DNA of 64,000 nucleotides, taken from positions 4,241-68,240 of the forward strand of contig MFSE01000021.1 of NCBI GenBank assembly GCA_001784805.1, read 5' to 3'. Shown here piece after piece: positions 9,523-61,219 of this stretch. The translations under genes and the position numbers were made by a program. The notes beneath the pieces are model-generated. The model saw only the letters and a list, made by a program, of their open reading frames with translations. It searched no databases and had not been told where the DNA came from. Source of the DNA: Candidatus Moranbacteria bacterium RIFOXYA12_FULL_35_19 (lineage in GTDB: Bacteria > Patescibacteriota > Minisyncoccia > Moranbacterales > UBA2206). The number at the start of each line of letters is the position of its first letter. The first letter of the stretch is position 1.

Positions 9523-9629
9523 TTTACGAACTACGAAAATAATACGAAATACGAAAATACGAAAATAAAATAAAATACGGAAAATGTGTATAAATTTTTT
9601 CGTATTTCGCTTATTTCGTAGTTCGTAAA
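9523..9629. repeat. TACGAAA-family intergenic hairpin element
   Basis: Arm acgaactacgaaaataatacgaaatacgaaaatacgaaa; loop; arm tttcgtatttcgcttatttcgtagttcgtaa. Confidence 0.8.
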
Positions 9630-10670: not shown

Positions 10671-10737
10671 TTTTACGAAATACGAAATAAGCTAAATACT
10701 AAAAATTTTTCGTATTTCGTTTATTTCGTATTTAGTA
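10671..10737. repeat. TACGAAA-family intergenic hairpin element
   Basis: ttttacgaaatacgaaataagc ... tttcgtatttcgtttatttcgta. Confidence 0.75.
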
Positions 10738-10769
10738 AAGAATAAAAAATAATAATTAAACAAAAGTCT

Positions 10770-12848: not shown

Positions 12849-12850
12849 AA

Positions 12851-12927
12851 TCATGAATCATGAAACATATAACATGAAACAAAAATGAAACAAAATTGTT
12901 TCATGTTTCATGTTGAGTGTTACATGG
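12851..12927. repeat. CATGAAA-family intergenic hairpin element
   Basis: catgaatcatgaaacatataacatgaaacaaaaatgaaac / gtttcatgtttcatgttgagtgttacatg. Confidence 0.75.
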
Positions 12928-13037
12928 TTGAGTTGATTTATTACAAGATATAATGTAGCATACAAGGGTAATAAAAGCAAGTGTTCGCGATGCGAATCTA
13001 CGAATGCATGCGAATCTACGAATAATAAAAAAAGTCT

Positions 13038-13727: not shown

Positions 13728-13893
13728 CTTGACTTTTGTCGAAAGATGATGTATAATAGATAGGTAATGAGAAAGCGGGTGAATGCCGCTTTTTTTATTT
13801 TTACCCTGTTGAATAAATTTTGCAGAGCAAAATTATTTTTCCTCCGGAAAAATTATTCAACAGGGTGAACTAATTATTAAAAAAAACAAAAAT

Positions 13894-14966: not shown

Positions 14967-15057
14967 TAGTTTTACGAAATACGAAATTAATACTAAATAC
15001 GAAAGTACGAAAGGGGAATTTAGTTGTTTCGTATTTCGCTTATTTCGTAGTTCGTAA
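14967..15057. repeat. TACGAAA-family hairpin element between rpsR and ssb
   Basis: ttttacgaaatacgaaattaatactaaatacgaaagtacgaaa ... gtttcgtatttcgcttatttcgtagttcgtaa. Confidence 0.85.
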
Positions 15058-15550: not shown

Positions 15551-15639
15551 GTTTTACGAAATACGAAATTAATACTAAATACGAAAGTACGAAAGAGGAG
15601 TTTTAATGTTTCGTATTTCGCTTATTTCGTAGTTCGTAA
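15551..15639. repeat. TACGAAA-family hairpin element between ssb and rpsF; near-identical to 14967-15057
   Basis: About 90% identity to the upstream copy over ~90 bp. Confidence 0.85.
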
Positions 15640-15642
15640 TTG

Positions 15643-16143
15643 TTAAATATTAAGTATTTCTTCTAACTTTTTATCAAGGTCGTCATTTTTTGGAGATTCT
15701 GGCTGGGTTTTTTCGGAATTTTTTTCGAGACTAACTTCGGGAGTTTCTTTTATTCCAGCCTTTTTTTCTATAATTTCCTTTTTTTTGGCTTTGTTTTTTT
15801 GAACAGTTTCTTTTTTGGTCAAATCCTCCATTCTTTCGTTTTTAGTTTTGAGTTCTGGCAAGTCTTGTGCTTTGCTCAAAATAAATCTGGCAATATTAGT
15901 GTTAAGATTAAATTTGGCGGTAATTTCTTTTAGATTTTGAGTATCTTCCAGATTGAATCGGCGGGCAATGTAGATTCCGTGATTTTCTTTGCCGACAGTG
16001 TAAGAAAGTTTTCTTTTTTCTAGCGTTTCTTTTTCCAGAAACTCTCCACCAGCATCTTTTACGATTTTTTCCACTTCAGACTTAATGTTTTCTAGCTCGT
16101 TTTCTTTCGAAGCGCCGACTAGATAGAAAATTTCATAGGTCAT
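15643..16143 (-). CDS. rpsF: 30S ribosomal protein S6 with C-terminal acidic extension
   Basis: MTYEIFYLVGASKENELENIKSEVEKIVKDAGGEFLEKETLEKRKLSYTV S6 core. Confidence 0.85.
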   Translation of the reverse strand: MTYEIFYLVGASKENELENIKSEVEKIVKDAGGEFLEKETLEKRKLSYTVGKENHGIYIARRFNLEDTQNLKEITAKFNLNTNIARFILSKAQDLPELKTKNERMEDLTKKETVQKNKAKKKEIIEKKAGIKETPEVSLEKNSEKTQPESPKNDDLDKKLEEILNI

Positions 16144-16144
16144 A

Positions 16145-16225
16145 TTGTCATTTTAGCATGTTAGCATATTAACAAAAAGTTATTAGCATTTGTTAAAATG
16201 CTAAAATGTTAATATGTTAAAATGA
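16145..16225. repeat. GCTAAAAT/TTAGCAT-family hairpin element (paired with 14655-14738)
   Basis: ttttagcatgttagcatattaac ... gttaaaatgctaaaatgttaatatg. Confidence 0.7.
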
Positions 16226-16384: not shown

Positions 16385-16494
16385 TTTACGAAATACCCGC
16401 CTCGACTCGCGGAGACCGCTTGTCGACGCGAGGCGGGCGAAATAAGCGAAATACTAAAGTACGAAAAGGGAACTTAATTGTTTCGTATTTCGTA
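16385..16494. repeat. TACGAAA-family hairpin carrying a 42-bp GC-rich palindromic insert at 16396-16437
   Basis: cccgcctcgactcgcggagaccgcttgtcgacgcgaggcggg sits inside the AT-rich arms. The insert is related, in reverse complement, to the in-frame element in dnaE at 58494-58571. Confidence 0.75.
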
Positions 16495-16498
16495 AAAA

Positions 16499-17551
16499 CT
16501 AAATTTTGAATTCTATTACATCGCCATCATTTACTATGTATTCTTTGCCTTCCGTGCGTAGTTTGCCGATTTCACGAGCTTTGGCCCAAGAGCCAGCTTT
16601 CAAAAGTTCATCCCATTGGATAACTTCGGCGCGAATAAATTTATCTTTGAAATCATTATGAATGGCGGTGCCGGCAATTGGCGCGGTGGAATTTTTTCGG
16701 ATCGTCCAAGCGCGAGTTTCATCGGTTCCCGTTGTGAGAAAAGTGATCAGGCCTAAAATTTCATACGCCTTGATTATCAATTCATCTAAATTAGATTTTA
16801 TTCCAAGTTCATTTGCTTCATCTTCCGACATTTCCAAAAGTTCTTCTTCGATTTTGATATCTAATTTTATATGATTTTTATTTTCTAAGACAGGCGATAA
16901 TTTTTGGCTGATGTTGTCGGTGTTAAAAGCATAAAGAAAAGGTTTCATTGTGAGCAGAGAAAGTTCGCGGACGATAATTTCGGCATTCTCTTCGGATAAA
17001 TCTAAATTAGTTTCATTGGCTAGACGGCCTTCTTCTAAATTTTTTTGGATTTTTTGCAAAACGGTTAATTGAATGTCGGCTCCTTTTTTGTTTCCACGAG
17101 CATCTTTTTCAATTCTTGTGCGGACTTTTTTGACTGTTTCTAAATCGGCGATAATTAGTTCAGCGTTGATTATCTCAATATCATTTTCCGGATCAATAAT
17201 ATTGTGCACATGAATAATTTTGTCATTTTGAAAAACTCGAACCACTTGGACAATCGAATCCACTTCGCGAATAGTCGCCAGAAATTTATTTCCGAGTCCT
17301 TCACCCGTAGAAGCACCCTTGACCAAGCCGGCAATATCGACAAATTCGATAACGGTCGGAATAATTTTGGCGCTATGGGACATCTCGGCGAGTTTTTCCA
17401 AACGAATATCAGGCACTTTTACAATTCCAACATTAGGTTCGATGGTGCAAAAAGGATAATTCTGAATATCTACCGGATTTTTGGTAAGAGCCTTAAAAAG
17501 TGTAGATTTTCCAACATTAGGCAGTCCAACAATTCCAATTTTTAGCGACAT
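16499..17551 (-). CDS. ychF: ribosome-binding ATPase YchF (Obg-family GTPase)
   Basis: MSLKIGIVGLPNVGKSTLF G1 motif; TGS-like C-terminus. Confidence 0.9.
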   Translation of the reverse strand: MSLKIGIVGLPNVGKSTLFKALTKNPVDIQNYPFCTIEPNVGIVKVPDIRLEKLAEMSHSAKIIPTVIEFVDIAGLVKGASTGEGLGNKFLATIREVDSIVQVVRVFQNDKIIHVHNIIDPENDIEIINAELIIADLETVKKVRTRIEKDARGNKKGADIQLTVLQKIQKNLEEGRLANETNLDLSEENAEIIVRELSLLTMKPFLYAFNTDNISQKLSPVLENKNHIKLDIKIEEELLEMSEDEANELGIKSNLDELIIKAYEILGLITFLTTGTDETRAWTIRKNSTAPIAGTAIHNDFKDKFIRAEVIQWDELLKAGSWAKAREIGKLRTEGKEYIVNDGDVIEFKI

Positions 17552-23723: not shown

Positions 23724-23833
23724 CCAATTTTTAGCGACATAAAATTTAGTTATATAGTTTAAAAGTTATAAAGTTAGTATAGGGGGAATATAAACTCATT
23801 GTGTATGGAGAAAGTTTCTTTGTCAATGAAGGG
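23724..23833 (-). pseudogene. duplicated ychF 5' end (first 17 nt / 6 codons MSLKIG) plus its upstream divergent-promoter region
   Basis: ccaatttttagcgacat is identical to the ychF start at 17535-17551. It is followed by the related spacer and the identical 34-mer at 23797-23830. Confidence 0.6.
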
Positions 23834-23880
23834 AAATGTGGTATAATTTGTTTAGCGAAATAAAACTTTTAAAATTATTT

Positions 23881-24729
23881 ATGTCAGAAAAAAAAATACA
23901 AAAAAGAAATATAGAAAAAAGTGTTAAAATAAAAGTGCGAAAAGTAAAGAGTGAAAAAAATAAACCTGCCTCGTCGGCTCACAGGAAACCAAAAATTGCG
24001 ATTGTGAGTTTGACATCTTGCGAGGGTTGTCAGTTTGCTCTTTTGGATTTAGGGCAAAGATTTTTGGATTTCGCCAATTCGGTAGAAATGGTGGATTTTC
24101 GTTTGATTGAAGATGAAGAAGATTTGGGAAAAAAACTCGATTTAGTTTTAGTGGAGGGAAATCCCGTAACAAAAGATAATATAAAAACTTTGAAAGAAGC
24201 CAGAAAAAGAAGTCGAATTTTAGTAGCCATGGGAAATTGTGCGGCCATGGGCGGAATACCAGAAATAAAAAATTATCAAGAAAAAACCAATACGATTAAG
24301 CATGTCTATAAATATATTGCAGGCGTGTCCAATCCAGAGATAAAAGAAATTGATAATTTTGTGAAAGTTGATTTTTCTTTACCTGGTTGCCCAATAAATC
24401 CGGAAGAATTTTTGCGATATGTGCCGGAATTATTAAACGGCAAAATTCCAATTATCCTCGATCAGCCGGTTTGTGTGGAATGTAAAAAAGCCGGAAATCA
24501 ATGTTTGCTATTGGATAAAAAACCATGTTTTGGTCCAATGATTTTGGGTGGTTGCAATGCAGTTTGTCCTAGCGCTGGCATGATGTGTCAAGGTTGTCGC
24601 GGACTTCGACCAAAGGGCAATGTTTCGGCTATGCGAGCGACATTGAAAAATATGATGACAGATGAAGAATTTGAAAATGTTTCAGAGATATACGGGTTAA
24701 GAGATAGTATAGAAGAAAAAACAAAGTAG
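23881..24729 (+). CDS. [NiFe] hydrogenase small subunit, cytoplasmic (group 3-like; no Tat motif)
   Basis: KIAIVSLTSCEGCQF proximal-cluster cysteines; C-terminal CxxC...C ferredoxin-like clusters. The start could also be 23836. A TTGTCA-16-TGgTATAAT promoter lies at 23819-23846. Confidence 0.85.
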   Translation: MSEKKIQKRNIEKSVKIKVRKVKSEKNKPASSAHRKPKIAIVSLTSCEGCQFALLDLGQRFLDFANSVEMVDFRLIEDEEDLGKKLDLVLVEGNPVTKDNIKTLKEARKRSRILVAMGNCAAMGGIPEIKNYQEKTNTIKHVYKYIAGVSNPEIKEIDNFVKVDFSLPGCPINPEEFLRYVPELLNGKIPIILDQPVCVECKKAGNQCLLLDKKPCFGPMILGGCNAVCPSAGMMCQGCRGLRPKGNVSAMRATLKNMMTDEEFENVSEIYGLRDSIEEKTK

Positions 24730-24735
24730 CATCCC

Positions 24736-24766
24736 TACGAATTACGAAAATTTACGAATGTACGAA
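24736..24766. repeat. left terminal inverted repeat flanking the GxxExxY gene
   Basis: ctacgaattacgaaaatttacgaatgtacgaa; the reverse complement of 25167-25198 matches at 28/32 positions. Confidence 0.8.
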
Positions 24767-25159
24767 AATAAATATAAAATTAAAAAAGACATATTATATC
24801 CACAGGAAGTTTTTGAAATTGTGGGGATTATGTATGATGTTTGGGATAAGGTTGGTTATGGGCATAAAGAAATTTTTTATGAAAAGGCTGCTGCAGAAAT
24901 ATTTAGAAAGAAAAATAAAAAATTTAAAGAGCAATTAAGATGCAAAGTAAAATTAGGAGATAAGGATTTGGGAATATACATTTTTGATTTTATTTATGAA
25001 GAAAAAATAGTCATTGAATTAAAACAGGGAGAAAATTTTTCAAAACAAAATATTAATCAAGTTTATGCTTATTTGAAAGCGACTAATCTGAAACTTGGGT
25101 TGCTTATCAATTTTACAAGAAAAGGTGTAAAGTTTAAAAGAATTGTAAATATAAAATAA
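24758..25159 (+). CDS. GxxExxY family protein (PD-(D/E)xK nuclease-like, TIGR04256-type)
   Basis: VGYGHKEIFYEKA (GxxExxY), DFIYEEKIVIELK (D..E.K), and C-terminal LKLGLLINFTRKGVKFKRIVN family signature. Confidence 0.85.
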   Translation: MYENKYKIKKDILYPQEVFEIVGIMYDVWDKVGYGHKEIFYEKAAAEIFRKKNKKFKEQLRCKVKLGDKDLGIYIFDFIYEEKIVIELKQGENFSKQNINQVYAYLKATNLKLGLLINFTRKGVKFKRIVNIK

Positions 25160-25166
25160 TTAAGAA

Positions 25167-25198
25167 TTCGTACATTCGTATGATTTCGTAATTCGTAG
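25167..25198. repeat. right terminal inverted repeat flanking the GxxExxY gene
   Basis: ttcgtacattcgtatgatttcgtaattcgtag; ends 4 nt before the hydrogenase large-subunit ATG. Confidence 0.8.
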
Positions 25199-25202
25199 AG
25201 TT

Positions 25203-26462
25203 ATGAATATTAAGATTAATCACATAGCGAAAATGGAAGGGCATGCTGGTTTTATGGCGAGCGTAATGCGTGGTGATGTGAAATCTTCCAAACTGGAAGT
25301 GCAGGAAGGAATCCGCTTGATCGAAGGAGTTTTGATCGGCCGGCATTTTTCGGATATGCCCGTGATTGCCCAAAGGATTTGTGGAATTTGTCCTGTAGTG
25401 CATAATTTGACTGCGATAAAATCTATCGAAAATGCTTTTGGTATCAAAGTGAGTGAAGAAACAGAAAAACTTCGTGAGATAATGGAACTGGGGCAGATTA
25501 TTCATTCGCACGCACTGCATCTTTTCTTTTTGTCGCTGGCGGATTTTTTTAATATTGATAATGATTTGAAATTGACGGAAAAATATCCGCAGGAAACAAA
25601 AAAAGCCATCAGAATCAGGGAGTATGGAATGGAAATAGTGCGAGCGATTGGCGGAAGAGTGATTCACCCCTTGACCAATGAAGTGGGCGGATTCAAAAAA
25701 ATTCCTGATGTTTCCGAATTGAAAAAATTGGTTTTTTCTTCCGGAGAAATTTTAGAAGACGCCATTGATTTGGGAAAATTTTTCAAAAAAATAATCCTGC
25801 CAGATTTTTGGCGGAAAACTGAATATGTGGGTCTTTTGAAATCCGGCAAATATGCGATTTATGATGGAGATGTTGTTTCCAATTTCGGTTTGCATATTCC
25901 TGTTAGCAGTTTTGAAAATAATTTTCATGAATTGCAAAAACAAAAAGAAGTGATAAAAAGAGTGGAGCATAATGAAAAAAGTTATATGGTCGGAGCAATT
26001 GCCCGAGTCAATTTGAACAAAAATAAATTGCGACCGTCGGCACACCGATATTTAGAAAGTTTGGAATTGAAATTTCCTAATTATAATCCGTTTAACAATA
26101 TTTTATTTCAAATGGTGGAGGTAATTCATGTTATTGAAGAGTCATCGCTTCTGATCAAACAAATCCTTCATTCTAATATGGAAAATGTTTTGACAAAACC
26201 GTATGAGATAAAAGAAGGAGTGGGAGCAGCCGCGGTGGAAGCGCCCAGAGGGACACTGTATTATCACACAGAAATCGATGCCAAGGGCTATGTTAAAAAT
26301 GTTAATATTATTACGCCAACGGCCCAATTTTTGTCAAATTTAGAAAATGATATTGCTCAATATATTCCGAGTGTTATGAAATTAAAAAATAAAGATAGGG
26401 AAAGAAAATTGCGGGCTTTTATTCGAGCGTATGATCCGTGTATATCATGTGCAGTACACTAA
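25203..26462 (+). CDS. [NiFe] hydrogenase large subunit (ends at the terminal His; no cleavable C-terminal extension)
   Basis: N-terminal RICGICPVVH (RxCGxCxxxH), C-terminal DPCISCAVH (DPCxxCxxH) followed by the stop; EGH near the N-terminus. Confidence 0.9.
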   Translation: MNIKINHIAKMEGHAGFMASVMRGDVKSSKLEVQEGIRLIEGVLIGRHFSDMPVIAQRICGICPVVHNLTAIKSIENAFGIKVSEETEKLREIMELGQIIHSHALHLFFLSLADFFNIDNDLKLTEKYPQETKKAIRIREYGMEIVRAIGGRVIHPLTNEVGGFKKIPDVSELKKLVFSSGEILEDAIDLGKFFKKIILPDFWRKTEYVGLLKSGKYAIYDGDVVSNFGLHIPVSSFENNFHELQKQKEVIKRVEHNEKSYMVGAIARVNLNKNKLRPSAHRYLESLELKFPNYNPFNNILFQMVEVIHVIEESSLLIKQILHSNMENVLTKPYEIKEGVGAAAVEAPRGTLYYHTEIDAKGYVKNVNIITPTAQFLSNLENDIAQYIPSVMKLKNKDRERKLRAFIRAYDPCISCAVH

Positions 26463-26463
26463 T

Positions 26464-26556
26464 TCATGTAACATATAACATGAAACAATTTTTTAATAAT
26501 TTAATATTGTATGAATTGTGTAGCTTGTTGTATGCTACATGTTTCATGCTACATGA
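26464..26556. repeat. CATGAAA-family hairpin element
   Basis: catgtaacatataacatgaaaca ... tgtttcatgctacatg. Confidence 0.7.
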
Positions 26557-26933
26557 TTATGACAGAACTTAATCAAATTTATAAATGCAATGTTTGCGGG
26601 AACATTGTAGAGATGACTCATACTGGAATAGGTGAGTTGGTTTGTTGTGGACAACCGATGGAACTTAAACAAGAAAAAACGGAAGATGAAGGAATGGAAA
26701 AACATGTGCCCATAATTGAAAAAACGGCCATCGGCGTGATTGTGAGTGTAGGAAAAATTGCTCATCCGATGGAGTCAGCTCATTATATCGAATGGATTGA
26801 AGTAATCACGGAGCATCGAGTCTACAGAAAGCATCTTGAACCTAGTCAAGAACCATCGGCTGAATTTTGTCTGGAAGCGGAACGCATTGAAGCTAGGGCT
26901 TATTGTAATGTGCATGGACTTTGGAAATCCTAA
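26553..26933 (+). CDS. dfx: desulfoferrodoxin (2Fe superoxide reductase)
   Basis: N-terminal desulforedoxin CNVCGN...CCGQPM; C-terminal SOR domain HVPIIEKT...H..E..H; the start is trimmed from 26511 to avoid hairpin-encoded residues. Confidence 0.85.
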   Translation: MIMTELNQIYKCNVCGNIVEMTHTGIGELVCCGQPMELKQEKTEDEGMEKHVPIIEKTAIGVIVSVGKIAHPMESAHYIEWIEVITEHRVYRKHLEPSQEPSAEFCLEAERIEARAYCNVHGLWKS

Positions 26934-27001
26934 TAATCACGAATGGGAAAACGAATGGATGCGAATTATTCGAGTAAATTCGTTTAAACATTAGCGACAA
27001 T

Positions 27002-27283
27002 TTGAATATCGTGCATGACTTTATTTTAGCTAAAGAAATAATTGATGAATTGAAAAGAATTTCTCAAGAAAAAAAACTTGGGCAGATTCGCAGTGTGAAT
27101 GTGGAGATCGGGACAATCGCTTTGGCGCATGATGGATTTGAGGAACATACCGAAGACATATCACTGGAAAATTTACAGTTTGGATTGCAAAGTATTGCAA
27201 AAAACACTGAATTTTCGGAGGTTAAATTCAATATCAAAAAAGTAGCGGGAGAGAATTGGAAAATAACGGAGGTTGAGGTATAA
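27002..27283 (+). CDS. HypA-like N-terminal domain protein lacking the zinc-ribbon (putative Ni-insertion accessory)
   Basis: MNIVHDFILAKEIIDELK..IRSVNVEIGTIA resembles the HypA MHE..A..I N-terminal domain; no CxxC pairs. Confidence 0.35.
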   Translation: MNIVHDFILAKEIIDELKRISQEKKLGQIRSVNVEIGTIALAHDGFEEHTEDISLENLQFGLQSIAKNTEFSEVKFNIKKVAGENWKITEVEV

Positions 27284-27288
27284 TAAAG

Positions 27289-27386
27289 ACATATAACATG
27301 TAACATACAACATGTAACATGCAACAAAAGGCAAGAATTTCATAAATTTTTATGCTATATGTTTCATGCTTCATGTTTCATGAATT
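27289..27386. repeat. CATGAAA-family hairpin element
   Basis: acatataacatgtaacatacaacatgtaacatgcaac ... gtttcatgcttcatgtttcatg. Confidence 0.7.
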
Positions 27387-28379
27387 ATGATTAAGCTTGC
27401 AATCAACGGTTTTGGCCGGATTGGCCGACCAAGTTTCAAAATCGCTTTTTCCAAAGATGATGTGGAAATTGTGGCGATAAATGATTTGACGGATCTCAAA
27501 ACTGTGGCGCATCTTTTGAAATACGATTCTTCCTATGGTATTTATGAAAAAGAAATTTCCGTGGATGAAGAAAATTCAGAACTTATTGTAGATGGAACGC
27601 GGATAAAATATTTTATGGAGCCTGATCCAACAAAGTTACCCTGGAAAGATTTGGGGGTGGATGTGGTTTTGGAATGCAGTGGAGTTTTTGATACGCACGA
27701 AAAGGCGCAAAAACATCTTTCGGCGGGAGCAAAAAAAGTTGTTCTTAGTGCGCCGGCCAAAGATGATACGCCAGTTTATATTCTAGGCATCAATAAACAG
27801 GAATATAAAAATGAGGAAATTATTTCCAATGGATCTTGCACCACTAATTGTTTGGCGCCGATGATAAAAGTGCTCGATGATAATTTTGGAGTAGAAAAAG
27901 GTTTTATGACAACCACGCATTCCTATACTAATGATCAAAGGTTGCAAGATTTGCCTCACAAAGATTTGCGGCGCGCTCGAGCGGCAGCGCTTAATATTAT
28001 TCCAACCACGACTGGTGCAGCGAAAACTGTAGGAAAGGTTATAAAACACCTAGTGGGGAATTTAGACGGGATATCGTTACGCGTGCCAACGCCCGTAGTT
28101 TCAATTGTTGATTTTATTTGCAATCTCAAAAAAGAAGCGACTAAGGAGGAAATTAACCAAGCTTTCAAAGAGGCCTCGAAGAATGGTCTAAAAAATATTT
28201 TAGCAGTGAGTGAAGAAGATCTTGTCTCAATGGATTTCAAAGGCAATCCTAACAGCGCCATTGTGGATTTGCCTCTTACTATGGCCAATGGAAATTTAGT
28301 AAAAGTTGTCGGTTGGTATGATAATGAATGGGGATATTCCAATCGATTGGTTGAAATGGCAGAGTTTATCACAAAATAA
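27387..28379 (+). CDS. gap: glyceraldehyde-3-phosphate dehydrogenase
   Basis: INGFGRIGR NAD-binding motif; SCTTNCLAP catalytic cysteine motif. Confidence 0.95.
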   Translation: MIKLAINGFGRIGRPSFKIAFSKDDVEIVAINDLTDLKTVAHLLKYDSSYGIYEKEISVDEENSELIVDGTRIKYFMEPDPTKLPWKDLGVDVVLECSGVFDTHEKAQKHLSAGAKKVVLSAPAKDDTPVYILGINKQEYKNEEIISNGSCTTNCLAPMIKVLDDNFGVEKGFMTTTHSYTNDQRLQDLPHKDLRRARAAALNIIPTTTGAAKTVGKVIKHLVGNLDGISLRVPTPVVSIVDFICNLKKEATKEEINQAFKEASKNGLKNILAVSEEDLVSMDFKGNPNSAIVDLPLTMANGNLVKVVGWYDNEWGYSNRLVEMAEFITK

Positions 28380-38032: not shown

Positions 38033-38127
38033 CCTACAAAATTACAAAAACATACAAAAATACAAAAGTACAAAAAATTAGAATTTCGTAATTTTGTACT
38101 TTTGTAAAAATTTGTATTTTTGTAGGG
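38033..38127. repeat. TACAAAA-family hairpin element (pair partner at 38973-39066)
   Basis: acaaaattacaaaaacatacaaaaatacaaaagtacaaaa / gtacttttgtaaaaatttgtatttttgtagg. Confidence 0.75.
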
Positions 38128-38197
38128 TTATAAATATTAATTAAGTGGGAGAATCTAACTGTTTTAAAAAAGATTCATTATTACCACAGAAAACTAT

Positions 38198-38972: not shown

Positions 38973-39066
38973 CTACAAAATTACAAAAACATACAAAAAT
39001 ACAAAAGTACAAAAAAGTAGAATTTTGTAATTTCGTAATTTTGTAAAAATTTGTATTTTTGTAGGT
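38973..39066. repeat. TACAAAA-family hairpin element (near-identical to 38033-38127)
   Basis: ctacaaaattacaaaaacatacaaaaatacaaaagtacaaaaaagtagaattttgtaatttcgtaattttgtaaaaatttgtatttttgtagg. Confidence 0.75.
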
Positions 39067-39074
39067 TCACAATT

Positions 39075-45102: not shown

Positions 45103-46110
45103 AAACTTTTTCACTTCTTTTTCTACATCCTTGTATTTCGGAAGCCAAATTATTCTTTTGTCTTTTTGAAACCAAGTCATTTGGCGCTTGGCGTAATTTT
45201 TTTCGGCGAGATAAATTTGTTCAAATAGTTCCCTGTTAAATACGGCTTCGCCTGTTTCGCTTCGCTCAAATTTAACAGGGTAAACCTCTTTGCGTAAATA
45301 TTCCGAGATTATCTTATAACCTAAACCGAAACTTTCCAATCTTTTCCAGCTGATTTTATTTTCGAAATGTAATTTTTTAACTTCCTTGATCATGCCTGCG
45401 AAGAATCTTTGCTTCAATCTTTTTTGGATATTCTGATAAAGTTTTTCTTTGGGGAGGTTGATTCCTATTTGTAGTGTTTCGTACTTTCGTTTATTTCGTA
45501 GTTCGTAAATGCTAGGGATTTTGCCGATACTTTTACAAATTTCAATAGCGCGAATGAGACGGACTGGATTTTTGGCGTCAATATTTTTTGCGCGAACCGA
45601 ATCTAATTTTTTTAGCATCTGGAATAATTTTTTGGCTGAATAATTATGTAATTTATTACGTAATTCCCAATCTGGTGCAACTTCTGGATAAATGACATTA
45701 TCAACCAGTGCTTTTATCCAAAAGCCGGTGCCACCACAAATAATCGGGATTTTCTCGCGCCCTAGAATATCTTTGATTATTTTGTCAGCATACTTTTTGA
45801 ATTTAGCCGAATTATATTCGGTCTTTGGACTTATAATGTCAATACCGTAATGAGGAATTCTTTCTGAGTAAAAAGTTCCCCCCTCTCTGTCGCGAGTACG
45901 CGACATCTCTCCCAAAGGGAGAGAGGGATATGAATTATCTTTTTCAATTTTTCCAGTACCAACATTCATGCCACGATAAATTTGGCGAGAATCCGCACTA
46001 ATTATTTCTCCGTTAAATTTTTTGGCAAGTTTAATTGCCACAGCTGATTTGCCAGATGAGGTTGGACCGAGAATAACAATTATTTTATTGTTTGCATAAG
46101 ATTCGCGCAT
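45094..46110 (-). CDS. miaA: tRNA dimethylallyltransferase, with in-frame repeat-element insertions
   Basis: IVILGPTSSGKSAVAIKLA P-loop, ADSRQIYRGMNVGT; insertion PSLPLGEMSRTRDREGG encoded by the GC palindrome. Confidence 0.9.
   Translation of the reverse strand: MRESYANNKIIVILGPTSSGKSAVAIKLAKKFNGEIISADSRQIYRGMNVGTGKIEKDNSYPSLPLGEMSRTRDREGGTFYSERIPHYGIDIISPKTEYNSAKFKKYADKIIKDILGREKIPIICGGTGFWIKALVDNVIYPEVAPDWELRNKLHNYSAKKLFQMLKKLDSVRAKNIDAKNPVRLIRAIEICKSIGKIPSIYELRNKRKYETLQIGINLPKEKLYQNIQKRLKQRFFAGMIKEVKKLHFENKISWKRLESFGLGYKIISEYLRKEVYPVKFERSETGEAVFNRELFEQIYLAEKNYAKRQMTWFQKDKRIIWLPKYKDVEKEVKKFLN
45478..45515. repeat. TACGAAA-family half-element inside the miaA coding sequence
   Basis: gtttcgtactttcgtttatttcgtagttcgtaaa matches the repeat consensus gtttcgtatttcgcttatttcgtagttcgtaa; encodes SIYELRNKRKYET. 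Confidence 0.7.
45878..45927. repeat. GC-rich compound palindromic element (family 1) in-frame in miaA
   Basis: cccccctctctgtcgcgagtacgcgacatctctcccaaagggagagaggg; about 22 extra residues relative to E. coli MiaA between GTGK and HYGIDI. Confidence 0.8.
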
Positions 46111-49530: not shown

Positions 49531-49619
49531 TTCTTTACGAATTACGAATCTCGTACACCTGCCTGCCGATAGGCAGGAATATACGAAATAAGAATTCTAA
49601 ATTATTTAACTTAAGCTTA

Positions 49620-61046: not shown

Positions 61047-61132
61047 GTTTTACGAAATACGAAATAAGCGAAATACGAAACGATTAAACTTCATTTTCGT
61101 ACTTTCGTATTTCGTTCATTTTGTAGTTCGTA
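61047..61132. repeat. TACGAAA-family hairpin element upstream of dnaE
   Basis: ttttacgaaatacgaaataagcgaaatacgaaacg ... ttttcgtactttcgtatttcgttcattttgtagttcgtaa. Confidence 0.85.
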
Positions 61133-61219
61133 ATTTGAGCGAAATAAAAACTGGTTCAAGCTAGTTGATAATCCAGTCGTTTAAAATAAAATAAAGTTTT
61201 GTCATATGATTATGTTCTC

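Follow-up and report, generated by a model that had tools for sequence, protein, structure and literature searches.

How does a gene for a putative nuclease come to lie between the two subunit genes of a [NiFe] hydrogenase? This question is raised by a 64,000-nucleotide stretch of DNA (the window; all positions refer to it unless a locus is named) from Candidatus Moranbacteria RIFOXYA12_FULL_35_19, an uncultivated Candidate Phyla Radiation (CPR) bacterium from Rifle groundwater, in which a gene of the GxxExxY family, bracketed by inverted repeats, separates the small and large subunit genes. An initial annotation had interpreted this arrangement as a selfish cassette inserted into an operon. 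Our analysis points to a related answer: positions 24735-25198 are probably one copy of a compact selfish element that is bounded by terminal inverted repeats (TIRs), encodes a nuclease and has hairpin derivatives resembling MITEs (miniature transposable elements with inverted repeats). The element family appears to be mobile and is provisionally regarded as previously undescribed, as it was found nowhere in the literature searched, the coverage of which was incomplete.

The layout given in the initial annotation, a GxxExxY gene between inverted repeats that splits the hydrogenase gene pair, was borne out. The two arms are 32 nucleotides long and complementary at 29/32 positions; the left arm begins 5 nucleotides past the small-subunit stop codon and the right arm finishes 4 nucleotides ahead of the large-subunit ATG, the latter as previously described. 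Both hydrogenase genes are intact despite the insertion, and the distance from the small-subunit stop to the large-subunit ATG is 473 nucleotides rather than the 474 bp first reported. The inverted repeat scored 24.5, compared with at most 10 for shuffled flanks and a median of 7 for control genes. The open reading frame (ORF) between the arms, oriented like its hydrogenase neighbours, codes for 133 amino acids and matched PF13366 (PDDEXK_3, 87.3 bits, cut-off 22) and TIGR04256 (GxxExxY, 90.2 bits, cut-off 35); in profile searches PDDEXK_3 was the only hit within the element, and no recognised transposase (DDE, serine, tyrosine or HUH) was detected. No further GxxExxY copy was present in the window. 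Inside the element we found only a weak promoter-like match (9/12) and no terminator match, and of the promoter matches ahead of the three genes only one is strong, namely the sigma-70-like candidate before the small-subunit gene (Table 1). It is a consensus match only, and the three genes may be co-transcribed. The absence of a Shine-Dalgarno (SD) sequence before the large-subunit gene, also pointed out in the initial annotation, is factually uninformative: leaders in the window are A/T-rich and an SD-like motif precedes 1/44 window genes, such that the genome is essentially SD-less. On these grounds we rejected the idea that the lack of an SD points to translation being disrupted or coupled.

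Hydrogenase loci were fetched from 80 Moranbacteria species (fetched loci are designated L) and the junction between the small- and large-subunit genes was measured. Uninterrupted junctions, with a gap of 1-23 nucleotides that typically reads TAA-nnnn-ATG, were found in 19/80 species. Other junctions contained a gene-less repeat hairpin, including a degenerate TACGAA hairpin (L013/L015), a solo right arm (L080, L082), in 1 species a GIY-YIG gene whose inverted repeat is 21/21, or an ORF of ~316 amino acids resembling an M10 metalloprotease (~22 species). GxxExxY genes occupied the junction in 9/80 species, were flanked by inverted repeats in 9/9 cases and were scattered on the large-subunit tree, a distribution that implies some 9-10 independent gains or losses. 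In ~640 kb around the hydrogenase operons, GxxExxY homologues were found at this junction only. Comparison with a sister species (L011), whose upstream flank is 94% identical, located the borders of the insertion: homology with the window ends at 24718 and restarts at 25201, the alignment breaks (24719 and 25200) fall within 16 nucleotides of the left arm and 2 nucleotides of the right arm, and an unrelated 104-nucleotide hairpin stands in place of the GxxExxY element. The GxxExxY unit is thus an insertion that entered the few bases separating the stop of the small-subunit gene from the start of the large-subunit gene. The claim of a selfish cassette is supported by these results, and the opposite situation named in the initial annotation, namely relatives that all carry the gene with no flanking repeats, was not observed. 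A conserved operon member was rejected, given that the gene is absent from 71/80 related operons.

We then considered 72 GxxExxY homologues that are 43-73% identical and come from 80 metagenome loci representing many contexts. Flanking inverted repeats with a score of at least 14 were present in 59/72 homologues and in 2/81 control genes of the same loci (Mann-Whitney p = 2e-24); control genes and shuffles served as the reference, since a null obtained by pairing flanks of different elements is itself high, all elements sharing TACGAA. Looking at other copies and their flanks, as the initial annotation had proposed, also brought up another GxxExxY gene in this genome (P0223), which is 52% identical and has the same type of arms. 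It lies outside the window, with a metallo-hydrolase gene on one side and, on the other, a small ORF located upstream of gyrA. Start and stop codons of the cargo lie right against the arms or overlap with them, so that gene and arms evolve as a unit. Neighbouring genes were co-oriented with the GxxExxY gene both upstream (54/56) and downstream (36/40), and the median gaps to these neighbours (42-46 nucleotides) equal about one arm length, indicating that the element fills the whole intergenic space.

The arms share a common architecture. The layout C-TACGAA-N1-TACGAA-N4/5-TACGAA-N2-TACGAA, in which four hexamers are spaced by 7, 10-11 and 8 nucleotides from start to start within ~32 bp, was recognised in 70/92 arms of homologous elements, and some lineages use the hexamer variants TACTAA, TACAAA or TACGGA. 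A second GxxExxY subfamily, which is 28-30% identical and occupies the hydrogenase junction of seven species, carries ATCCGAAT repeats instead, showing that each gene subfamily is specific for its own repeat type. When the two arms of an element were compared with each other, hexamer positions differed at 4% of sites and spacers at 33%, and the arms had spacers of unequal length in 17/40 elements. What is conserved is an inverted pair of hexamer arrays and not an unbroken helix; such a pattern is to be expected of protein-binding sites at transposon ends and suits these better than an RNA stem. In elements of the second subfamily (L033, L020, L062 and others) the left ATCCGAAT repeats extend over the small-subunit gene's 3' end, and for this reason the insertion replaces the last small-subunit codons and provides the stop codon.

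The dN/dS ratio of the GxxExxY gene (nonsynonymous over synonymous substitution rates) ranged from 0.05 to 0.14, showing that the protein is under purifying selection. Residues D77, E87 and K89 (D-ExK) are invariant, and the 133-amino-acid protein combines the catalytic residues of PD-(D/E)xK enzymes with a nuclease fold. A sequence search against solved structures gave no match to the protein, and models of defence systems gave noise-level hits only. GxxExxY / PDDEXK_3 is a large family (13,068 clusters at 50% identity, E <= 1e-3) that is listed as being of unknown function (PMC3424549), and nothing on function was found in those papers of the searched literature that name GxxExxY. Tandem double-GxxExxY proteins are frequent in the family (P0262, P0285, P0289 and others of ~260 amino acids), with two matched stretches in ~265 amino acids, which hints that the functional unit may be a dimer.

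Seven gene-less TACGAA hairpins and two solo arms were identified in the window. The initial annotation had assigned the empty intergenic hairpins and the repeats of the hydrogenase copy to the same type; this kinship was recovered, but the hydrogenase copy is not the closest match, as all window hairpins and solo arms are closer to the arms of P0223. The density of TACGAA hairpins per 100 kb increased from 0.47 in the 80 hydrogenase loci to 4.5 in the GxxExxY loci and 9.4 in the window. Among the 80 hydrogenase loci, 2/3 hairpins fell into the sole two loci with this GxxExxY subfamily (hypergeometric probability ~0.001, computed on loci of 5-10 kb). Hairpin arms correspond to the arms of the filled element from the same locus or genome, and in some hairpins the loop still has an SD-like stretch plus a start codon immediately ahead of the right arm. 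Moreover, in two loci (L121 280-830 and L129 2380-2960) intact TACGAA arms enclose GxxExxY pseudogenes that have lost the start codon and contain in-frame stops. A full decay series is therefore at hand, comprising the pristine site, the intact element, the pseudogene, the empty hairpin and the solo arm. The suggestion that empty hairpins may be cargo-less derivatives is supported by the co-occurrence with cognate genes, the matching arms and the pseudogenes with intact arms. A G+C-rich mini-hairpin, CCTGCCTGCCGA(T/C)AGGCAGG, was seen nested in TACGAA arms (49536-49587 of the window and, from other samples, L134 and L136 723-795) and may be a further tiny element that targets TACGAA repeats.

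Comparisons between genomes suggest that the element is mobile. In the close relatives L132 and L139, the flanking genes of which are 89-93% identical, a shared element with 93% nucleotide identity occupies different junctions, lying between T2SSE and T2SSF in L132 and after T2SSF in L139. The unoccupied T2SSE-T2SSF site of L139 is an intact overlapping stop/start (TAATG), and the site that holds the element in L139 is taken in L132 by a GIY-YIG gene with its own inverted repeat and cognate empty hairpin. An 81%-identical copy with perfect arms (33/33) was found between rpsG and fusA, the copy in L175 is 85% identical next to a large subunit with an identity of just 68%, and the protein tree intermixes insertion contexts.

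On the basis of these data we propose that the element would be transcribed from the operon promoter and that the GxxExxY protein would bind the hexamer arrays at both ends and cut DNA there or at related sites, whereupon host repair, recombination or ligation would complete movement or copying. The same protein would act in trans on the gene-less hairpins, which consist of two arms and a short loop and would represent MITE-like derivatives and decay products that fill many intergenic gaps. Since the cargo gene starts next to or within the left arm, base pairing between the two arms at the transcript level would probably restrict nuclease translation to a low level that depends on read-through out of the gene upstream. 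The logic would be that of an autonomous element with non-autonomous partners, as in the REPtron/REPIN and insertion sequence (IS)/MITE pairs, with a nuclease of a different superfamily.

Several observations weigh against this proposal. We saw no transposition event, target-site duplication or excision footprint in the loci compared, and the one clean filled/empty pair, L132 and L139 (GATAA^TGAAG when empty, GATAA-element-ATATGAAA when filled) has 3 extra nucleotides and no clean direct repeat. To our knowledge, a PD-(D/E)xK hydrolase alone is incapable of strand transfer, which leaves the integration chemistry without an account. Binding of the hexamers by the protein is suggested by co-variation and by the pattern of conservation, and the co-occurrence statistics given above refer to short loci, not to whole genomes. 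Outside the CPR, two plasmid-borne GxxExxY genes, from Fusobacteria and Persicobacter, had no comparable flanking repeats, meaning that the architecture belongs to the clades described here and not to the whole Pfam family. Furthermore, the insertion is fixed in the species: the element was present in 13/13 contigs with the exact small subunit, and a presence/absence polymorphism within the species was rejected on this evidence (the variant contigs L008 and L010 were uninformative, as they show only scattered substitutions relative to the window or, in a contig of 1.8x coverage, an upstream rearrangement). Synonymous sites are saturated between the window element and its closest copies (dS 1.7-2.3), so the hydrogenase copy gives no sign of recent activity and, taking saturation and fixation together, must be old; dating of transfers by dS was rejected because of this saturation. 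Finally, the recurrent use of the same junctions is explained by site-specific homing at least as well as by transposition.

Homing remains the main rival, or a complementary mechanism, because junctions recur and nuclease families swap at one site. According to this explanation, which we consider unlikely, a free-standing homing endonuclease cuts a conserved sequence at the gene junction of genomes lacking the gene and is copied in from a donor genome by double-strand-break repair; the arms would play no part in recombination but would insulate or regulate, so that the operon stays functional and little nuclease is made, and empty hairpins would be scars of gene decay. The placement is of the homing type, that is, intergenic, sporadic and at the same site in diverged hosts, with the rpsG-fusA junction used in 12 loci, T2SSE-T2SSF in 8, T2SSF and the next gene in 4, and HydS-HydL in 6 (plus 7 of the second subfamily). 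The occupants vary as well: the junction after T2SSF holds a GxxExxY or a GIY-YIG gene in relatives, and that of the hydrogenase GxxExxY A, GxxExxY B or GIY-YIG. The distribution is patchy, the element is better conserved than its flanks, the decay from pseudogene to empty hairpin to solo arm is compatible with homing, and the PD-(D/E)xK fold includes known homing enzymes, the catalytic domain of I-Bth0305I being among the weak Foldseek matches of the GxxExxY protein. Free-standing homing endonuclease genes are familiar from phages, such as the GIY-YIG seg and HNH mob genes of the T-even phages. Like them, the element places a small nuclease gene between conserved genes, is present or absent in close relatives and belongs to interchangeable families; the phage genes, however, have neither terminal inverted repeats nor dispersed gene-less derivatives, and for them cleavage of the cognate empty site is documented. 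Moreover, homing does not account for a four-hexamer array at both ends that co-varies with the protein subfamily, nor for seven similar hairpins, all of one paralogue's lineage, at seven unrelated sites in 64 kb, and the mixing of contexts in the protein tree means that lineages are not bound to single sites.

We regard it as considerably less probable still that the unit is an RNA-level element comparable to the ORF-bearing intervening sequences (IVSs) of 23S rRNA, in which a double-stranded stem would be cut by RNase III, or by GxxExxY acting as a ribonuclease, to release the cargo mRNA while the flanking cistrons stay functional and spread at the DNA level is a separate process. The 23S rRNA IVS of Coxiella is 428-444 nucleotides long and has a 28-bp terminal stem, a loop ORF of the IVP family and excision by RNase III (PMC4990558). 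The resemblance in size and shape to such IVSs (Leptospira, Coxiella; PF05635) is close (~430-460 nucleotides, a stem of ~28-32 bp, one ORF in the loop), and in both cases the insertion sits in a transcribed essential unit without destroying it and has a sporadic distribution that suggests horizontal transfer. In line with an RNA function, the long-range arm stem is part of the predicted minimum-energy fold of the RNA (z = -4.7), the elements are co-oriented with transcription, and Moranbacteria operons contain 23S_rRNA_IVP family genes that are likewise enclosed by repeats in this layout (L082:1932-2309 and L102:4271-4639). Yet mismatches between the arms showed no excess of G·U-compatible pairs on the sense strand (26 vs 28), complementarity of the spacers is not kept and the arm layout is often unequal; selection for an RNA stem was rejected on the absence of a G·U bias and the non-complementary spacers. 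Cleavage by RNase III would follow from any long stem and would not prove that the stem is selected. The insertion sites also differ, IVSs being located in helix 25 or 45 of the rRNA and the present elements between protein-coding genes: Rfam models detected two tRNAs only in the window and no rRNA in 20 related loci, hence no copy in an rRNA gene. In addition, the cargo is a nuclease rather than a four-helix-bundle protein, and it is the hexamer motifs rather than the pairing that are conserved.

It is scarcely credible that GxxExxY genes land or persist in the loops of ordinary host hairpins (intergenic RNA or DNA structures), or that the hydrogenase operon has the gene as one of its conserved accessory members. 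Several unrelated heptamer hairpin families do fill intergenic gaps in this genome and often end 4-9 nucleotides before start codons, and the element is fixed in the species, but this subfamily occurs only with TACGAA-type arms (variants included) and in no case with hairpins of another family, a separate repeat accompanies the second subfamily, the arms border on or run into start and stop codons, the same subfamily is found in dozens of unrelated contexts, and the operon-member version is already contradicted by the 71/80 operons lacking the gene.

With a selfish TIR-bounded element as the preferred explanation, the closest organisational parallel is provided by the REPtrons and TIRtrons with their REPINs, in which genes for RAYT or TIRYT tyrosine transposases are flanked by REP or TIR repeats (PMC3116915, PMC3337134, PMC3733652). 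As in REPtrons, one small gene lies between inverted copies of a repeat that is also dispersed as gene-less intergenic doublets, each gene lineage is bound to its own repeat type, and a promoter of its own is missing, with expression by read-through suggested for both. The enzymes differ, the present one belonging to the PD-(D/E)xK superfamily and that of REPtrons being an HUH/Y1 (IS200-like) transposase. Arms are composed here of four direct hexamers, whereas each REP unit is a palindrome in itself and bears a GTAG tag; the outermost arm unit, CTACGAA, puts GTAG at the outer end, the C being present in 35/40 arms. Unlike RAYTs, which are single-copy and vertically inherited, the GxxExxY elements have at least 2 copies per genome, vary in their sites and show signs of horizontal spread.

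TIRs together with gene-less derivatives bearing the same TIRs are likewise the hallmark of IS/MITE pairs. The parents of classical MITEs are IS elements that encode DDE transposases, and such MITEs have target-site duplications (TA for Correia), whereas the candidate autonomous partner in our case encodes only a PD-(D/E)xK protein of ~130 amino acids. The gene-less hairpins are similar to co-transcribed hairpin MITEs (Correia of Neisseria, RUP, ERIC; PMC10969869) in being 70-120 nucleotides long, bounded by TIRs, intergenic and located inside transcription units. Integron cassettes, in which each ORF is followed by a single attC hairpin and an integron integrase is adjacent, did not fit, as the arms are on opposite sides of the ORF and no integrase was found among the called neighbours.

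The hairpins are part of a wider pattern. When the window was compared with the sister species (26380-27450 versus L011 4504-5674), every examined intergenic spacer was non-homologous and had different hairpins next to genes that are 87-96% identical, showing that intergenic DNA turns over far faster than coding DNA. A screen of all fetched loci for small ORFs with flanking inverted repeats returned 38 GxxExxY genes, two 23S_rRNA_IVP genes and the GIY-YIG gene of L022, the last three each with a repeat type of its own and with additional copies of the arms. The two IVP genes, coding for four-helix-bundle proteins, have their own heptamer-type inverted repeats and are located inside protein-coding operons. 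Small GIY-YIG genes (L022:3714-3968, 84 amino acids; L132:2985-3224, 79 amino acids) lie between G+C-rich inverted repeats (21/21 in L022), with a cognate empty hairpin beside the gene in L132 (2916-2960). It is conceivable, albeit doubtful, that the GxxExxY, GIY-YIG and 23S_rRNA_IVP families are the autonomous partners of their own families of hexamer- or heptamer-repeat hairpins in Moranbacteria and related CPR bacteria, the hairpins together colonising and rapidly turning over nearly all intergenic gaps of these streamlined genomes, with GxxExxY as a new repeat-mobilising nuclease and the rRNA IVSs as members of the same class. If this were true, a family of ~13,000 clusters (at 50% identity) would gain a function, the classical ORF-bearing rRNA IVSs would be elements of this class that landed in rRNA, which offers a route to their origin, and the presence of non-homologous intergenic DNA between CPR species with 94%-identical genes would be explained. 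Already the link of one GxxExxY clade to four-hexamer TIRs, cognate hairpins and insertion at operon junctions amounts to a testable function. The HUH-based REPIN/RAYT paradigm of a repeat paired with an autonomous gene would be joined by a system that relies on a hydrolytic nuclease, which raises the question of how such an enzyme could bring about mobility.

Other hairpins belong to at least four more intergenic families of tandem heptamers, for which no cargo gene was found in the window. Many of these hairpins end 4-9 nucleotides before a start codon, also in ribosomal-protein operons (rpsF-ssb, rplA). The IVP copy of L082 directly follows the hydrogenase large subunit, and extra copies of IVP arms are present in the same and in other loci.

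Table 1. Hydrogenase genes, element parts and repeat hairpins located in the window.
Feature	Position	Strand	Remarks
Gene-less TACGAA hairpin, MITE-like	9540..9629		arms cognate to P0223 element
Gene-less TACGAA hairpin	10672..10739		
CATGAAA/CATGTAA-type hairpin	12849-12929		
CACCCTGTTGAATAA-type hairpin	13800-13869		type shared with L014 hydrogenase junction
TTAACAT/GCTAAAA-type hairpin	14647-14730		
Gene-less TACGAA hairpin	14973..15056		loop: SD-like stretch, then start codon
Gene-less TACGAA hairpin	15555..15638		near-identical to 14973-15056
TTAACAT/GCTAAAA-type hairpin	16140-16221		
TACGAA hairpin, shorter, degenerate	16438..16508		
Sigma-70-like promoter candidate, TTGTCA-16-TATAAT with TG, before small-subunit gene	23820..23847	+	11/12, consensus match only
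[NiFe] hydrogenase small subunit, group-3b-like delta, 282 aa	23881..24729	+	PF01058, E 5e-26
Left TIR, C-TACGAA-T-TACGAA-AATT-TACGAA-TG-TACGAA	24735..24766	+	cargo ATG at 24758 inside arm
GxxExxY protein gene, 133-aa PD-(D/E)xK nuclease fold	24758..25159	+	D77, E87, K89 conserved
Right TIR, reverse complement of left arm (29/32)	25167..25198	-	
[NiFe] hydrogenase large subunit, group-3b-like alpha, 419 aa	25203..26462	+	PF00374
CATGAAA/CATGTAA-type hairpin	26460-26558		
CATGAAA/CATGTAA-type hairpin	27290-27392		
TACAAAA-type hairpin	38043-38129		
TACAAAA-type hairpin	38988-39067		
Solo right-type TACGAA arm, likely remnant	45478..45507	-	
Gene-less TACGAA hairpin	56119..56210		
Gene-less TACGAA hairpin	61050..61133		

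The hydrogenase that hosts the element is 3b-like and two-subunit. The small subunit had sulfhydrogenase delta as its top NCBIfam match, with ShyD and HydD both under the equivalog cut-offs, and its translation has no visible twin-arginine motif. In the large subunit the metal-binding motifs L1 (RICGICPVVH, pattern RxCGxCxxxH) and L2 (DPCISCAVH, pattern DPCxxCxxH) are intact. Equivalog-level matches to ShyA/ShyD or HydA/HydD were not reached (232 vs cut-off 700 and 163 vs cut-off 460) and neither Fe-S/FAD nor beta/gamma diaphorase subunit genes adjoin the pair, which is why we do not assign the enzyme to full group 3b.

Some minor features of these operons were also recorded. The junction ORF of ~316 amino acids (found in L018, L019, L024, L026, L031, L032, L037, L039, L043, L045, L046, L048, L052-L055, L057, L063, L068, L071 and others) combines an N-terminal hydrophobic segment with an HExxGHxxGxxH motif (PF00413, Peptidase_M10, E 9e-9) and is an odd operon member. 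Six metagenome contigs of the species (L006, L010, L183, L186, L187 and L188) start or stop at the element, consistent with assembly breaks at inverted repeats. This has practical implications, as the arms break metagenome assemblies and extra genes are placed in operons that are used for metabolic inference. Downstream of the large-subunit gene, a 93-amino-acid HypA-like ORF (27002-27283; PF01155, E 8e-5) scored under the Pfam and NCBIfam cut-offs, and the last residue of the large subunit itself is precisely the His of DPCxxCxxH, a C-terminal extension being absent; together these two features suggest that the hydrogenase may use an unusual maturation route.

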